DNA from: Candidatus Versatilivorator sp.
GTDB taxonomy: Bacteria; Acidobacteriota; Terriglobia; Versatilivoradales; Versatilivoraceae
DNA length: 64,000 nucleotides
Assembly: GCA_965207735.1 (NCBI GenBank)
Contig: OZ242296.1
Location: forward strand, 2,592,001 to 2,656,000
Reading direction: 5' to 3'
Position numbers and translations under genes: made by a program. Shown here piece by piece: positions 56,266 to 64,000 of this stretch (positions within the stretch are counted from its first letter, which is position 1; each line of letters begins with the position of its first letter). Below the pieces are notes generated by a model. That model did no database searches. It was not told the DNA's origin and saw only the letters and a program-made list of their open reading frames with translations.

Positions 56266-56292
56266 TTATTCCAGTAATTCAACAACGTCCCC
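56266..56292. repeat. Inverted-repeat site (right-end type) abutting RHS fragment
   Basis: ttattccagtaattcaacaacgtcccc, near-identical to 57436-57462 and 58034-58058. Confidence 0.85.
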
Positions 56293-56300
56293 GAGTTTTC

Positions 56301-57190
56301 AGGTAACGAGTGCCGGGCCGGGCCGGAGCCGTCCCCCCGAACTCGGCCACCAGCTGCCCCAGGACGTTGTAGACATAGGTGGTGGTGACGCCGCTCGATC
56401 CGCCGACCTCCTTCCGGACCCTTCTCCCCTCTCCGTCATAAGCATAGGCGGTGTCGCTGTCGGTGCCGGTGGGGTGGTCGAAGGCCACCAGGCGGTTGTC
56501 CCCGTCGTATTTGAAGGCGTTGGCGGCCCAGTCGGCCTTGAGGTTGCCGGCAGCGTCGTAGGCGACGATGTTCACTCCCTTGACGCCTGCCAGCCGGTTG
56601 GTCCCAGCGGCGATGTCGGCCGTCGACTGGGGTGTCAGCGCCTGGTTCGACCCGTGGGCGGCCCCCGCCGTCACCCGCCGGTTGCCGTAGCGGTCGTAGG
56701 CATAGGTCTGCGACCAAGCCGTGCCGCTGCCGCTTTCGGCGGCCGAGCTCAATCGGTTCAGCGCGTCGTAGGTGTAGGCCTGGTTTTGATTGAGCGAGGC
56801 CCCTACCCGGATCCGCTGGCTCAGGACGTTGCCGTTGTTCGAGGCTGTCCCGTAGGAGTAGTCGAGCAGCAGCAGGCCCGCCGTAGGCCTCGTCCCGGTG
56901 GCCGTCAGCCCCCCGGTGGCCATGGCCGTCCCGAGGCCGATCTGGGTCGGCTGCAGGCGGACGTTATAGCGCCGCTGCTCCCACAGCCCGTTGCCCAGAA
57001 GTAGCTGCTTCACCCCTCCGTGGGGCTCATACCCGACGGCGTTATCCCCCCTCCCCCCGGCATACCAGCCGTCGATGCCCGTCTTGGCCCCCGCAATCCT
57101 CCCCGCCCCGTCGTAGACGTAGTCCACCACCCGGTCGGAGGGGTAGCGCTGCGAGGTCAGGTTCCCCGCCCGGTCGTAGGCGTAGGCCAT
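56301..57190 (-). pseudogene. Orphan RHS core fragment, paralog of 60293-61170
   Basis: Near-identical to the main RHS from MAYAYDRAGNL to PGTRYL with a 12-nt indel; lacks the DHLGS...DPxG core end and toxin tip. Confidence 0.85.
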
Positions 57191-57200
57191 TTGGGCGTTC

Positions 57201-57466
57201 AATAGGGGACGTTGTTGAATCAGTGGAATTTCGCTGTCAGGCGATTCTGTCGACGCCTGGACAGGGAGGAAAAAACGGAGGGGAAATCCCGGACATAGTG
57301 GGGAACTGCTTGGTGCAACGATTCGAACGCGTATTGAGGACGAATCGTGGCGTCAGTGTCTGCGAGTTTGCCGAAGCGCTCGGGAAGCCATCTGCATCGC
57401 CGTTTTATTCAGTCGCGAACAAGAAACTGAGAAAGTTATTCCAGCAATTCAACAACGTCCCCTATT
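57201..57466. mobile_element. MITE-like element with perfect 20-bp terminal inverted repeats
   Basis: aataggggacgttgttgaat (57201-57220) and attcaacaacgtcccctatt (57447-57466). Confidence 0.82.
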
Positions 57467-57888: not shown

Positions 57889-58060
57889 CAGGGGATGTTG
57901 TTGAATTGCCGGATTAACCTCTCTCACACCGAGTTGTTGGAAGAGCCCGGATGGTCTCGGATATAGGTTCCGCACCAGGCAAACCACTCCAACACCTTCA
58001 TCGCCAACGGATTACAGAATCGCTAGTTCAAGCTATTCCAGTAACTCAACAACGTCCCTG
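57889..58060. mobile_element. Second, shorter MITE-like element of the same IR family
   Basis: caggggatgttgttgaattgccggatta ... tattccagtaactcaacaacgtccctg, an imperfect inverted pair. Confidence 0.7.
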
Positions 58061-58107: not shown

Positions 58108-59322
58108 TCACATCTTATCCAGAAACTTCCGGATCCGTTCCACTACCTTGTTCTCTTTAGCAAGTTCGCATTGCCAAATGACCAGCACGTCCCAACCCGC
58201 TTCAGCGAGAGCCTCTTGGTCTTGCGCGTCTCGTTGGTCGATGTCGCGTAGCCTCCGCGACCAGTAATCATAATAGTACTCATCAGCCTGGTCCTCCCTG
58301 CATTCGGGCAGGTCATGCCGATGCACACGACAAGCGTAATAGAAGATCACCTTTTGCCGGTCCGGGAAGACCAGAGCGGGACAGCCGGGAAGGTCCTTGC
58401 GGTCGAGCTGACAATGGTAGCCCATCGATTGCACGAGCTGGCACAGCTGATTCTTTTCAGGCAGCGCTTGAATCTCTAGATAGGGGGGAGTGTAGTCTCT
58501 TCGCAACGGAACAGTAACCCTATTCAGGGACGGCAACGTCTGCAAGGAAGACAGATCCTTGTCGGCCGTGACGTGTAAATCAACAATCGACACCCACTCG
58601 AGGCTTTCGCTCCCTGACAGGAATTTGAGACTCGGGAGAGGGCCACAGTTTTCGAACCGCACTTTCTTGAGACGCTTCATCGAAGCGAGGCGGGGAAACA
58701 TGCTAATTTTCTTGCAAGCATAGACTTCCAGTTCTTCAAGATTGGACAGCTCCTCAATGCCCTCGAGACTGGTCAGCTTCGTGCAGATACATAACTCGAG
58801 AGTCCGCAGCTTGGTAAGCTTCGAAATGCCCGCAAGGCTACACAACTTCCTCGAATAGATCTTCAGGTTTTCGAGCTTCCGCATGGACGCAAGCATACCC
58901 AGGTCTTCCCCAGGGTACGAATCGATGGTCAAGTACTCCAAACGATGGCATTTGTCCAGATTCCTGGTTTTTTTCGACCAACGACAGTACAAACTCCGCA
59001 ACTGCTTGAATACTCCTAGGTCAATGGGGCGCTTCAGATTGACCTCAAATGACAGGTGTTCGATCCCCTTCCGGCACATCAAGGGACTAAGATCGTTGAC
59101 GTTCCAACTGAAGACCTTAAATCCGGTCACAGAAGTCGGAACCTCCTCTAGAAAATCAAGGTGTTCGTCTGGCCAAACTGGAGAGCGCCCATCCCCATCC
59201 AGAGTTAGGGTAAGTACACCTTCGCTCTCAATCACAGAGGCAAATTCCTGCGACCAGGACTGCCGCAAAACCAAGCAGCGACCAAAACGCCCATATTCCC
59301 TGATATATACCCCCCTCCCCAT
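58108..59322 (-). CDS. Leucine-rich-repeat candidate immunity protein fused to a degenerate Vsr-like domain
   Basis: LRR units (LENLKIYSRKLCSLAGISKLTKLRTLELC, LTSLEGIEELSNLEELEV); C-terminal DLPGCPALVFP..KVIF..C..HRH...YW...RD...GWDVLVIWQC; lower GC; directly downstream of the toxin. Confidence 0.8.
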   Translation of the reverse strand: MGRGVYIREYGRFGRCLVLRQSWSQEFASVIESEGVLTLTLDGDGRSPVWPDEHLDFLEEVPTSVTGFKVFSWNVNDLSPLMCRKGIEHLSFEVNLKRPIDLGVFKQLRSLYCRWSKKTRNLDKCHRLEYLTIDSYPGEDLGMLASMRKLENLKIYSRKLCSLAGISKLTKLRTLELCICTKLTSLEGIEELSNLEELEVYACKKISMFPRLASMKRLKKVRFENCGPLPSLKFLSGSESLEWVSIVDLHVTADKDLSSLQTLPSLNRVTVPLRRDYTPPYLEIQALPEKNQLCQLVQSMGYHCQLDRKDLPGCPALVFPDRQKVIFYYACRVHRHDLPECREDQADEYYYDYWSRRLRDIDQRDAQDQEALAEAGWDVLVIWQCELAKENKVVERIRKFLDKM

Positions 59323-59352
59323 AAAAGAGATCCCTCCATTGCACCGAAAGTC

Positions 59353-62300
59353 CTATCGTCCTTGCTCTAGCTCCAATTGCTGCCGCCGTTGCTTGGAAAC
59401 CGGATTACGCTGGTTCGAAACCATGGGTGAATCCTTCACATTATCACCCCCGACAATCTTCTTAAGTCTATCGGATTCTGCAAGCTCTCGCTTCGTTTTC
59501 CCTCCGCGCACTTCCTTCACCGTGACTTGGGTGCCCTCGGGGAGCGTTCCTGACCTCATATGCTGCTGAAGTCGTTTCTGAGGATTGCCGGATTGGCCGA
59601 CATATTTTTTGCCAGTATCGTCAACGAATTCGTAAATTCCCTCCTTGACCGGGACGGTCATCTTGCCCTTACCGCTGGCCGCGCGAACAACGGCAGTACC
59701 TTTGTCAACCCGGTTGACCGCCCGTGCCACTCCACCCGCTGCCCGCGAGGCCCTGATGGCGGTGGCTGCCCCACCCGGCACTCCCGGTATGGCGGTAGCA
59801 GCTACATCCACAACCACCCCGGCAAGATCGACGGCGGCGGCTTTGTAATTTCCTTCTGCGATGTTGACGGCAGCGGATGCCAGTCCGATGGTGACGTTGA
59901 AAACATCCCAGGGAGATTCAAGGACGTTGCCGGTCCTGTCGACGTACTTGAGGGGGCTGTTCCGGGTGTAGGTGTAGAGATTCCAGCTCTGGGGATCGGC
60001 TGCGCCCTGATCGGCGAAGGGGGCATCGGCGGACGTAAACCGTCCTCCTGCCCCGCTAAAGTAGCGTGCCCCGAAGTAATCGAGCCCGGACTCGTTATCC
60101 CTTTCCTTGCCGGTAAACTTCTGGGCGGGTCCGTCGGCGCGGGAGGCGGTGTAGCCCGTGACCCCCGTGGCCTGGCCCCGATTCCCCAGGCCGGCGCCGA
60201 TCTCCTCCCCGAAGGGCAGGTAGTCGTGGCGGGAGAGGACCGACTGGTCCTCCCCGGTCACGACGCGGGTGCTGCCGAGATGATCGGGGGTGAGGTAGCG
60301 GGTCCCCGGCCGGTCCGGAGCCGTCCCCCCGAACTCGGCCACCAGTTGCCCCAGGACGTTATAGACGTAGGTGGTGGTGACCCCGCCTGAGCCCCCGACC
60401 ACCTTGCGGACCCTCCGGCCCTCTCCGTCATAGGCGTAGGCGGTGTCGCTGTCGGTGCCGGTGGGGTGGTCGAAGGCCACCAGGCGGTTGTCCCCGTCGT
60501 ATTTGAAGGTGTTGGCGGCCCAGTCGGCCTTGAGGTTGCCGGCAGCGTCGTAGGCGACGGTGTTGACTCCCTTGGTGCCTGCCAGCCGGTTGGTCCCAGC
60601 GGCGATGTCGGCCGTCGACTGGGGCGTCAGCGCCTGGTTCGATCCGTGGGAGGCCCCGGCCGTCACCCTCCGGTTGCCGTAGCGGTCGTAGGCGTAGGTC
60701 TGCGACCAAGCGGCGCCGCTGCCGCTTTCGGCGGCCGAGCTCAATCGATTCAGCGCGTCGTAGGTGTAGGCCTGGTTTTGATTCAGCGACGTTCCCACCC
60801 GGATCCGCTGGCTCAGGACGTTGCCGTTGTTCGAACTGGTGCCGTAGGAGTAGTCGAGCAGCAACAGGCCCGAGCCGGCCGGGGTCAGGCCGCCCGTGGC
60901 CTTGGTTGACCCCAGGCCGATTTGGGTCGGCTGCAGGCGGACGTTATAGCGCCGCTGCTCCCACAGCCCGTTGCCCAGAAGCAGCTGCTTCACCCCGCCG
61001 TGGGGCTCATAGCCGACGGCGTTATCCCCCCTCCCCCCGGCATACCAGCCGTCGGCACCCGTCTTGGCTCCCGCTATCCGCCCCGCCCCGTCGTAGACGT
61101 AGTCCACCACCCGGTCGGAGGGGTAGCGCTGCGAGGTCAGGTTCCCCGCACGGTCGTAGGCGTAGGCCATGGTGTAGGGAGGGTTCCCCCCGGTCCTCTG
61201 GGTGCTCTCCAGCACCCGCCCCAGCGCGTCGTAGCGGTTGTAGGCCGTCCGGGTGACGTCTGTCGTGCCCTTCTTCGCCGTCACCGAGCACAGCCGCCCT
61301 CGGGAGTAGCTGCCGCAGCTGTCATAGGCGTAGTCGACCCGGGTGGTCCCGAGGCTTACGGCAGTGTCGCTCCCCGTGTAGCTGTAGCTGCGCCGGGTCA
61401 GACGGTCCAGGCGGTCGTAGGTGTAGGCGGTCACCACCCCGCGGGCGTCGGTCCTTTGCGTCAGGTTGCCGTTGTTGTCGTAGGTGTAGGCGACGGTCCC
61501 GCTTTCGGGATTGGCGGCCGAGGTCAGGCGCGAGAGGCTGTCGTAGGCGAAGGTCCGGGTCTGGCTGCCCTGGGTGACCCCGGTCAGGTTGTCGAGGGCG
61601 TTGTAGGTGTAGGAGGTCCCCTGGTTGGGCGAGCCGACTGTGCCCAGGGCGGGGGGTGAGCCGGTGGGCTCATCCACCCGCACCAGGCGGCCGAGCCCGT
61701 CCAGACGGCTGCGGCGCGTCTTGCCGGCCGGGTCGGTCACGGTGGTGTATTCCCCGTCGTAGGCGGTCGCGGTCTTGCCCAGGGTGGGGGCGGCGCCGGC
61801 CGAGGGCTTGGCGGCCCCGCTGAAGCGGCCTACCTCCACCACCCGACCCAGATTATCCAGCCTGGTCCGGGTCCATCCCGACTTGGTCGTCCCCCGGTAG
61901 GGGTTCGAGGTGGTGGTGGTGCTCGAGGTCCCCGACCTCAGGTAGTGGGTCGCCACCTTGATGCCGGCCGTCTCCGAGTCGTAGGACGAGCAGTGGGCGT
62001 TGCGGTCAGACCCGGCCGGAAGCGGCGGCGCGTCTCCCTCGTAGCCGCGGACCAGCCTCACCCTTCCCAGCCCGTCGTAGTCGGTCACCGTCACCAGCTT
62101 CCCGTCCCCCTTGGCTCCCAGGTCGGATCGCACGATCATCCGCCGCTTCTCGTCGCAGTGCCAGCTTTGGGTCCGCCGCTCCTCGCTCTTCCCCGAGGAC
62201 TCCTTCACCAGGATGGCCCGGCCCACGTCGTCCAGCCCGGTCAGGGTCGCCACGCCGTTGTCCACGTCGGTGGATGAGGTCACCTGACCGGTGTGGAAGT

Positions 62301-64000
62301 CGTAGCCGTAGGTCATCGTCCGCGACACCCCGGTGCCGGAGGCCTCCACCACCCGGGTCGGGTAGAGCTGCGAGATCGACGGCGAGCCGCTGCCGGCGAT
62401 GGCCCCGTAGGTCCAGCGCGTCACCGTCCCCCGCCCGTCGGTGGTCGAGGTCCGGTTGCCGTGGCTGTCGTAGGCGTGCGAGAGGGTGAAGGAGTTGGCC
62501 GAGGTCAGCGTCCCCGACACCACCCCCGAAGCATTGGACTTGCCGATCTTCTCCCCCGTCAGGTTCCCCCGGGTGTCGTAGCTGAACTCCCGCCGCGACC
62601 GCTTCGTTCCCCCGCCTTCCCGGACCTCGGTCGAGGCCTTCAGCGTGAGCCGGCGGGCCGAGTCGGGATCGTAGTAGGCGTCGTCGTCCGAGGTGGCGGT
62701 GTCGGTGGCTGCCGGGGTCGCCGACCGGTAGGCGTGGGCGGTGGTGCGCCGCTTGCTCCCGCGGCTCCGGGTCGGGTTGCCGCTCGCATCGTGCACGGCG
62801 GTGTAGTCGACCCAGTCGTACTCCTCCACCCGGGTCAGGTTCCCGTTCTTGTCGTAGGCGTAGTCGGTGACCGCCGTCTTGTCGGTCGTCCCCTGCTCGG
62901 TCCGGTACTCCGACTTCACGTAGGGGTTGGCCTGAAGGATCGAGGCCCGCGTGATTCCAGGCGACCCGATGGATGGGATGTTGTAGGCCCACTCCCGCTC
63001 CATCACCCTGGAGAGCTTCGAGTCCAGGCAGTTCGGCCCCCCCAAGGGAATGGTGGCCTCCTCGCAGTACTCGACCTTCGCCAGCAGGCCCCCGAAGGCG
63101 GCGTTGCGGCCGTAGGTCTCCCGCCTCTTCCCCCCTCCCGGGGTGGTGATGACGGCCTGGAGGTTGGGCGCGATCCGGTAGTCCCAGCTCTCGGTCTGCC
63201 TGGCGCTGCCGAAGCCGGTCGGGTAGCTGACGCTCTTGGCCGTGATGGCGTTTTCCGCCGCCGCCTGCGCGTTGTGCAGCGCCGAGGCCGACTCCATGTC
63301 GGCGTAGTCCTGCACATAGGTGTAGGTGGCCTTGGCTCCCCAGGGCATGGTTGCGGTGCGCAACTCCCCCAGCCCCCGCGAATGGGGCGCGTAGGGGGCG
63401 CCTGAAGGGTTGCTCTCGGCGCCGTTATAGGTGAACCGGTAGTCGAGACCCCCCACTTGGGAGGGCAGCACGATGCGGGCCACCATCCGCAGGTCGCCGG
63501 CAATGAAGCCCACCGTGTCCTCGCTGTTGGTCGTCGAGGTGGCGGTGCCCGCCTCGTTGTGCTGGATCCTCCGGATCGGGTAGGTGCGGTTGACGCTCGT
63601 TTCCCCCCACTCCACCGTCCAGGTCAGATCCTCGCCCCCGGCCCCCTTTCCGGTGATGGTCTGGCGGTTCGGATCCGGCCGCTGATTCTCCCCCGGCTCG
63701 ATCCGGATCGTCCGCCCCGCCTCGTCCCGGATCAGATCGTAGGGAGCGTCGTCGTTGTCCAGCAGCCGGCTGACGGTCACCGCGCCGGCGTCGCTGTCGT
63801 TGGGGTCCAGGAAGCGGTTGGCCATCAGCCCCACCCCCTTCACCTGACGCCCGTCGGGAAAGGTCAGCGTCCAGGGGTTGTCCTGCCACTGATAGACGTC
63901 GAGCAGGGTCGCCGAACTGCCGGTTTCGAAGTCCAGCCGCAGGTAGGTCCCGTCGGTGCTGTAGTAGCTCACCGTGCTGTTGGCCGCCGGGGCCGTCCAT
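59353..64000 (-). CDS. RHS/YD-repeat polymorphic toxin with C-terminal GIY-YIG nuclease (N-terminus outside window)
   Basis: YD repeats, PDHLGSTR, FTGKERDNESGLDYFGARYF, NLYTY..NSPLKYVDRTG, then a hydrophobic linker and EGIYEF..KKYVGQS..RLQQH; frame open to the window edge. Confidence 0.92.
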   Translation of the reverse strand, partial: WTAPAANSTVSYYSTDGTYLRLDFETGSSATLLDVYQWQDNPWTLTFPDGRQVKGVGLMANRFLDPNDSDAGAVTVSRLLDNDDAPYDLIRDEAGRTIRIEPGENQRPDPNRQTITGKGAGGEDLTWTVEWGETSVNRTYPIRRIQHNEAGTATSTTNSEDTVGFIAGDLRMVARIVLPSQVGGLDYRFTYNGAESNPSGAPYAPHSRGLGELRTATMPWGAKATYTYVQDYADMESASALHNAQAAAENAITAKSVSYPTGFGSARQTESWDYRIAPNLQAVITTPGGGKRRETYGRNAAFGGLLAKVEYCEEATIPLGGPNCLDSKLSRVMEREWAYNIPSIGSPGITRASILQANPYVKSEYRTEQGTTDKTAVTDYAYDKNGNLTRVEEYDWVDYTAVHDASGNPTRSRGSKRRTTAHAYRSATPAATDTATSDDDAYYDPDSARRLTLKASTEVREGGGTKRSRREFSYDTRGNLTGEKIGKSNASGVVSGTLTSANSFTLSHAYDSHGNRTSTTDGRGTVTRWTYGAIAGSGSPSISQLYPTRVVEASGTGVSRTMTYGYDFHTGQVTSSTDVDNGVATLTGLDDVGRAILVKESSGKSEERRTQSWHCDEKRRMIVRSDLGAKGDGKLVTVTDYDGLGRVRLVRGYEGDAPPLPAGSDRNAHCSSYDSETAGIKVATHYLRSGTSSTTTTSNPYRGTTKSGWTRTRLDNLGRVVEVGRFSGAAKPSAGAAPTLGKTATAYDGEYTTVTDPAGKTRRSRLDGLGRLVRVDEPTGSPPALGTVGSPNQGTSYTYNALDNLTGVTQGSQTRTFAYDSLSRLTSAANPESGTVAYTYDNNGNLTQRTDARGVVTAYTYDRLDRLTRRSYSYTGSDTAVSLGTTRVDYAYDSCGSYSRGRLCSVTAKKGTTDVTRTAYNRYDALGRVLESTQRTGGNPPYTMAYAYDRAGNLTSQRYPSDRVVDYVYDGAGRIAGAKTGADGWYAGGRGDNAVGYEPHGGVKQLLLGNGLWEQRRYNVRLQPTQIGLGSTKATGGLTPAGSGLLLLDYSYGTSSNNGNVLSQRIRVGTSLNQNQAYTYDALNRLSSAAESGSGAAWSQTYAYDRYGNRRVTAGASHGSNQALTPQSTADIAAGTNRLAGTKGVNTVAYDAAGNLKADWAANTFKYDGDNRLVAFDHPTGTDSDTAYAYDGEGRRVRKVVGGSGGVTTTYVYNVLGQLVAEFGGTAPDRPGTRYLTPDHLGSTRVVTGEDQSVLSRHDYLPFGEEIGAGLGNRGQATGVTGYTASRADGPAQKFTGKERDNESGLDYFGARYFSGAGGRFTSADAPFADQGAADPQSWNLYTYTRNSPLKYVDRTGNVLESPWDVFNVTIGLASAAVNIAEGNYKAAAVDLAGVVVDVAATAIPGVPGGAATAIRASRAAGGVARAVNRVDKGTAVVRAASGKGKMTVPVKEGIYEFVDDTGKKYVGQSGNPQKRLQQHMRSGTLPEGTQVTVKEVRGGKTKRELAESDRLKKIVGGDNVKDSPMVSNQRNPVSKQRRQQLELEQGR

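Follow-up and report, generated by a model that had tools for sequence, protein, structure and literature searches.

Near one end of the window (the whole 64,000-nt stretch of DNA analyzed here), an Rhs toxin gene ending in a GIY-YIG nuclease tip is followed on the same strand, after a gap of 30 nt between the toxin stop and the next start, by a gene in which an LRR solenoid continues in frame into a degenerate Vsr domain (Table 1). The Rhs gene has an RHS_repeat match and scores above the cut-off for both TIGR03696 and GIY-YIG, and its tip retains every residue that does not vary across an alignment of 18 tips (G-x-Y, Y-x-G-Q-S, R, H, E, and N). A Shine-Dalgarno-like GGAGGG lies ahead of the LRR-pseudoVsr gene at 59332-59337. 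With a toxin tip and a recurrent downstream partner, the two genes have the hallmarks of an Rhs toxin-immunity pair, and neutralization of the toxin by the LRR-pseudoVsr protein is predicted.

Table 1. Features of the toxin locus and its surroundings, in window coordinates.
Feature	Position	Strand	Basis or remark
Rhs toxin gene	59353..64000, plus 689 nt outside the window	-	1778 aa in total; hydrophobic N-terminus by eye
GIY-YIG nuclease tip of the Rhs toxin	59353..59655	-	Pfam and tip alignment
LRR-pseudoVsr gene (P0001), 404 aa, predicted immunity protein	58108..59322	-	ORF and domain matches
LRR solenoid, residues 1-288 of P0001	58459..59322	-	stand-alone family of ~285 aa, ending at about residue 288-290
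Hypervariable N-terminal repeats, residues 1-135 of P0001; putative toxin-binding surface	58918..59322	-	allele comparison
Degenerate Vsr domain, residues 289-404 of P0001	58108..58458	-	profile, sequence, and predicted fold
MITE-like 170-bp repeat element	57891..58060	.	~50 nt past the fusion stop; the genome has related copies at other sites
MITE-like 258-bp element with terminal inverted repeats	57205..57462	.	repeat comparison
Orphan Rhs fragment	56279..57202	-	DNA 91% identical to window 60293-61170

The orphan Rhs fragment stops just before the core motif and has neither a toxin tip nor an immunity gene. The two MITE-like elements share a 16-bp terminal repeat, which has 83 matches in the genome (at most 1 mismatch). 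Its inverted pairs number 30, most of them with a spacing of 72-258 bp; two with a spacing of about 1 kb may represent the parent IS. On the upstream side of the Rhs gene (L132:5396-10290) are a 293-aa gene without a Pfam match and a 1360-aa IPT/TIG repeat protein, and no T6SS genes were noticed by eye among the ORFs within ~10 kb. The same genome also has an intact vsr, about 2.6 kb from a C5 methyltransferase in an island with an integrase (G000:C1:1532000-1541000) and with genes that by eye look like ZorA/ZorB. Between this island and the fused domain, DNA identity is 74% over 104 nt.

A degenerate Vsr domain at the end of an LRR protein

One open frame of 404 aa encodes both parts of the protein, as a sequence-only reading of the window had described, and the motifs are as that reading quoted them. 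Pfam LRR matches fall at residues ~100-270, and the C-terminal 114 aa match the TIGR00632 vsr profile (E 1e-17) with 64 bits, below its cut-off of 97.85; a second family profile, PF03852, also gives a score below its cut-off (24 versus 27 bits). In a sequence search, the same 114 aa match E. coli Vsr (1cw0, E 4e-10). The predicted model of the fusion has a pLDDT of 94 and a pTM of 0.90 and is biased toward the Vsr fold, since the 62-sequence alignment behind it contained 12 intact Vsr proteins; an earlier model built on 5 sequences had a pLDDT of 67. Superposed on 1cw0, the fusion model gives a Z of 15.9 and an rmsd of 3.6. It has no linker, and the first Vsr helix (287-299) is predicted to abut the LRR cap directly. 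Foldseek with this model returned LRR proteins only, among the matches listed, and in the ESM Atlas the Vsr domain fell with ordinary Vsr clusters (0.92) and the whole protein with LRR clusters only (0.80). Separate translation of the Vsr part from M300 is unlikely: the position is Ile in P0002, and there is no conserved internal start.

Comparison with 13 intact Vsr proteins from related genomes, using residue roles given in the available portions of PMC4081097 and PMC2677866, shows which parts of the domain have been lost. Asp51, present in 13/13 intact proteins, is Ala316 in the fusion, and Ala in all four alleles described below. The motif HGCFW has become YACRV, through the changes His64 to Tyr329, Gly65 to Ala330 (G in 13/13), Phe67 to Arg332, and Trp68 to Val333 (F and W each in 13/13). 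The N-terminal Vsr arm, including Glu25, is absent, with the LRR end in its place; the Gln42 position is now Asp, and the P-K-S loop motif is gone. Every one of these losses is common to all four alleles. The sequence-only reading had already called the loss of the catalytic aspartate, of HGCFW, and of the arm, and these calls are borne out; it had also counted the change from WEC to WQC as a loss, which we reject as a mark of inactivation, Q occurring there in 3 of the 13 intact proteins.

Preserved in the fusion are His69 (H334), Asp97 (D365), Trp86, and structural Trp, Leu, Gly, and Pro residues, and C331, H336, C341, and C385 are invariant across the four alleles and the 13 intact Vsr proteins. 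We take these four to be the Vsr zinc ligands C66, H71, C73, and C117. The Cys/His site thus appears to be retained, in agreement with the sequence-only reading, and zinc binding by the fused domain is predicted. When residues are sorted into structural invariants and functional residues, 14/17 of the former are preserved versus 2/8 of the latter (p 0.01, with the classes picked after seeing the data).

Replacement of Asp51 by Ala is expected to inactivate Vsr. Our literature search found no paper on the inactivation of Vsr by D51A; in the related change AbaSI D61A, equivalent to Vsr D51A, activity is abolished according to the part of PMC4081097 consulted. The fused domain is therefore probably catalytically dead, as had been claimed, insofar as Asp51 is lost; against this, His69 and Asp97, both named as Vsr catalytic-site residues in the available text of PMC2677866, are kept. 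The domain resembles Vsr endonuclease (E. coli 1CW0; TIGR00632; PF03852) in its fold, its Cys/His ligands, and H69, D97, and W86, and it appears to be Vsr-derived, yet it fails the tests for an active Vsr: it has no arm, carries D51A, F67R, and W68V, has lost its basic charge, and scores below both curated family cut-offs. It also differs in its setting, lying on an LRR in a toxin locus, whereas the ordinary Vsr lies near a C5 methyltransferase.

Over residues 295-402, net charge is -5 in the window allele, -4 in P0002, 0 in P0003, and +1 in P0019, as against +4 to +19 in the 13 intact Vsr proteins; over residues 289-404, the four alleles have -4, 0, +3, and +3. In each of the three alleles for which it was scored, the loop 341-352 is acidic (-4, -4, and -3, versus 0 to +4 in intact Vsr), and the long helix 353-376 has a charge of -2 in the window allele and P0002 and 0 in P0003. 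The claim that normally basic segments had turned acidic holds for the loop in those three alleles and only in part for the helix and for the domain as a whole. By these sequence-based counts the basic Vsr surface is gone, and a strongly acidic domain is not conserved among alleles.

Alleles, selection, and range of the fusion

A homologue search recovered the same fusion in P0002, P0003, and P0019, and the arrangement is therefore not unique to the assembly of the window; uniqueness was an outcome that the sequence-only reading would have counted against its proposal. The four distinct 404-aa alleles have identical active-site changes, and identity to the window allele is 79-87% (P0002 87%, P0003 79-80%). 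P0023 is almost the same as P0003 apart from a longer start, and P0021 and P0022 are two half-length products of one contig with a break inside the LRR, probably a frameshift or an error. No truncation at the LRR-Vsr junction was found among the alleles recovered.

Codons of the Vsr domain were compared between the window allele and contigs from two public runs, X4 and X14, which belong to separate studies; the amino-acid changes of X4 match P0002, and those of X14 match P0003. X4 differs from the window by 9 synonymous and 9 non-synonymous changes (dN/dS 0.25, Fisher p 0.005; the count takes 17 of 20 differences listed plus a terminal change known from P0002). X14, at a depth of 2.7, differs by 14 synonymous and 16 non-synonymous changes (dN/dS 0.27, p 0.0007; 30 of 40 differences listed, codons 290-392), and its dN/dS is 0.30 if two unlisted changes are taken as non-synonymous. 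The overall range of 0.22-0.30 covers the Vsr part only, and the two comparisons have the window allele in common. The codon counts indicate that the Vsr part is under purifying selection; neutrality had been set beforehand as the outcome that would speak against it, and the view that the domain is retained rather than decaying is upheld. All four alleles maintain 404 aa across a dS of 0.13-0.26, and from such comparisons we conclude that the fusion is not a read-through accident. In a tree, the fused domains form one clade (100/100) with a stem of 1.57 changes per column and short tips; the long stem suggests that the domain changed rapidly once fused and has since been constrained. Among intact Vsr proteins, the closest, one of them from the same genome, are 42-45% identical to the fused domain.

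Variation among the alleles is concentrated at the other end of the protein, where 19 of the 22 columns with at least 3 states fall in LRR residues 1-135; in the model, many variable columns are placed on or beside the first five LRR strands. P0003 and P0019 have 27 differences in the first 110 residues and 2/116 in Vsr, and the X4 contig differs from the window at 213/2035 nt over the tip and gene and at 20/411 over the Vsr end. This distribution suggests that specificity sits in the N-terminal LRRs. Compared with LRR residues 111-288, the Vsr part is slightly less conserved (identities of 107/116 versus 174/178 and of 93/116 versus 152/178).

The fusion looks narrow in range and lineage-restricted. 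Its full length was not found in samples of 60 relatives, 30 family genomes, and 400 phylum genomes (the last scanned with the LRR profile), and DNA of fused homologues was found in none of the JGI metagenome contigs or viral contigs scanned. The word-index protein searches covered proteins up to 707 aa; a search with the Vsr part among proteins of 66-210 aa gave 11 candidates and no match, and is weakly informative about degenerate copies that stand alone, since it missed ordinary Vsr too. Three other weak matches in relatives are a Vsr-methyltransferase fusion and unrelated LRRs; at L057:847-2565 (G060), a Vsr with the catalytic Asp is fused to a C5 methyltransferase. In RNA run X8, short contigs match the Vsr part as well as the LRR and the end of the tip, which is at most a hint of expression. 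In one X8 record (record 30, window 59319-59452), the toxin's last codons and the gap are present, but the sequence departs from that of the window at the start codon; possibly a different immunity gene follows this tip end there.

The LRR family and the GIY-YIG tip clade

With the toxin tip as query (chosen because the variability of two LRR alignments made them unsuitable as seeds for a genome scan), we gathered 104 tip-clade loci, of which GTDB supplied 35, a class search 2, and metagenomes 67; the set is not de-replicated, and some loci look near-duplicate. The next gene after the tip is an LRR in 65 loci, RraB-like in 19, DUF5076 in 16, and another gene in 2, with 2 loci too short to tell (neighbor names were verified by Pfam on samples). 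Among the 65 LRRs, 8 are cut or short and 57, including 2 that are broken or partial in frame, reach the family end. All 57 of these complete copies stand alone, with a tail of at most 14 aa and no Vsr, so the LRR alone is, by this comparison, the usual partner of the GIY-YIG tip clade and the Vsr part would not generally be needed. No Vsr match was found on the tip's strand in any of the 104 loci. In the wider LRR family, 106 of 148 newly listed best matches are 330 aa or shorter and 3 of the 148 are 331-500 aa, and stand-alone members end where Vsr begins in the fusion. The comparative data thus favor the LRR alone sufficing for protection. C-terminal tails of other kinds occur in the LRR family (of unknown type in P0028, DUF4240 in P0130, and glyoxalase in P0165).

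Possible roles of the fused domain

The explanation that we prefer, at about even odds (a probability near 0.5), is that the protein is a cognate immunity protein whose LRR binds the tip, the disarmed Vsr being kept as a folded, zinc-stabilized, rigid C-terminal extension that is not the neutralizing part. The LRR family is the commonest next gene of the tip clade and stands alone elsewhere; in one lineage, the LRR end may have been fused to a 5'-truncated vsr of the ordinary restriction-modification type. The length of the stem branch suggests that the basic surface and the residues for catalysis and DNA contact then disappeared, which would keep the immunity protein from nicking or adhering to the host chromosome, and the remaining Vsr part now evolves under constraint. 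It may be of benefit by making the protein more stable or more rigid; at most, an acidic patch (341-352) could play an auxiliary part in capturing the basic tip. Against a structural extension, stand-alone LRRs need no such cap, the Vsr part is slightly less conserved than LRR residues 111-288, and His69 and Asp97 are retained, residues for which a structural need can only be presumed. Purifying selection on the Vsr part would also act on a decoy or a tolerated passenger, and a conserved Vsr part is also expected of an active-site blocker.

Such a blocker could arise if the former DNA face of Vsr had turned acidic and served as a DNA mimic that plugs the basic GIY-YIG active site while the LRR holds the tip, so that the toxin would be neutralized at two points. 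The shift in charge relative to intact Vsr and the acidic loop point this way, as do the basic tip region (net +10 over 59356-59697) and the acidity of the small alternative partners of the tip clade (median net charge -5 for RraB-like proteins and -4 for DUF5076). Acidic DNA-mimicking immunity surfaces have precedent in the part of bioRxiv 10.64898/2026.09.22.753552 consulted, and the 1cw0 superposition, of which only the end points are available and which begins at model residue 246, hints that the last LRR repeat may occupy the place of the Vsr N-terminal arm. We nevertheless hold a decoy to be doubtful, because three of the four alleles have a whole-domain charge between 0 and +3, the pI of the fused domains (5.2-7.8) is far from that of classic mimics, and the change of Phe67 to Arg puts a basic residue on the old DNA face. 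The domain is also absent from 57/57 complete relatives, and no charge compensation between LRR and Vsr is seen, the charge of the fused LRR lying within the range of stand-alone LRRs.

An accidental fusion could also have been tolerated with no benefit, its harmful nuclease and DNA-binding residues purged and its apparent constraint arising since a misfolded tail would destabilize an essential immunity protein. The narrow range of the fusion (found in none of the relatives, family and phylum genomes, or JGI and viral contigs scanned), the other tails that the LRR family acquires (DUF4240, glyoxalase, and unknown; 3/148 newly listed), and a region rich in MITE-like elements and Rhs debris would all fit a passenger. 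The normal form could be regained through a stop codon around residue 288, but every one of the four alleles is 404 aa long, across the dS separating them and after a long stem, and we think a mere passenger unlikely. The domain might instead have a function unconnected with the toxin, either by binding a partner protein such as MutL or some nuclease other than the toxin or by still binding nucleic acid weakly for regulation. His69, Asp97, and Trp86 are retained, E. coli Vsr without its first 14 residues still binds MutL (per the accessible text of PMC2715241), and immunity proteins with regulatory domains are cited in the portion of bioRxiv 10.64898/2026.07.13.738213 seen. We judge such a second function to be quite improbable, however, for the basic charge and the intercalating residues are gone, MutL sequestration is mutagenic (same portion of PMC2715241), and the neighborhood suggests no partner.

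The type of Rhs toxin-immunity system described here is known, and the lineage-restricted LRR-pseudoVsr fusion is, on the comparisons above, real and selected and, to judge from our literature searches, new. Rhs/Imm-LRR pairs are alike in placing an Rhs nuclease tip before an LRR gene, and Imm-LRR and URI (GIY-YIG) tips are both described, in the available text of PMC3482391; there, Tox-URI1 differs in going with Imm14/26/44/51, and Imm-LRR with T5SS toxins. The portion of that text covered here does not mention Vsr, and its Additional File 1 could contain an LRR-Vsr pairing. Among Stenotrophomonas Rhs toxins with UvrC-like/GIY-YIG tips, the LRR immunity gene 314 is predicted by modeling to be a blocker (bioRxiv 10.64898/2026.07.13.738213); no Vsr domain is mentioned in the part of that study consulted, and we liken gene 314 to the fused LRR by description, not by homology. 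RehhI, in which an acidic surface lies near a basic nuclease toxin, exemplifies the proposed decoy principle (bioRxiv 10.64898/2026.09.22.753552, part seen), but it has an unrelated fold, and its action is shown by structure and mutation where contact of the fused Vsr domain with the tip is putative. Our literature searches, supplements excepted, found no paper on an LRR-Vsr fusion, and the terms looked for do not occur in PMC6116569.

What the fusion means depends on the role of the domain. If the Vsr domain is only structural, its importance is modest. If, as we consider a minority possibility, an immunity gene captured a Vsr whose DNA face lost its intercalating residues, turned acidic, and today serves to block the active site of a nuclease toxin from another family, then a dead nuclease would have become an anti-nuclease, caught while its intact ancestor type persists in the same genome, and such blocking would show how immunity proteins can acquire inhibitory surfaces that are new. 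The locus offers a recent and bounded pseudoenzyme birth, in which the junction is clean, selection can be measured, and four alleles can be set beside intact relatives that are 42-45% identical.

Across loci L022-L056 and L063-L131, candidate immunity genes of three unrelated families follow tips of the GIY-YIG clade, namely LRR, RraB-like (PF06877), and DUF5076 (PF16826), a pairing that gives DUF5076 a testable role. In L033 an LRR is followed by an RraB-like gene, and in L050 an LRR is followed by DUF5076. More distant LRR relatives in L018 and L019 follow a different, divergent GIY-YIG-like Rhs tip, whose motif was recognized by eye.
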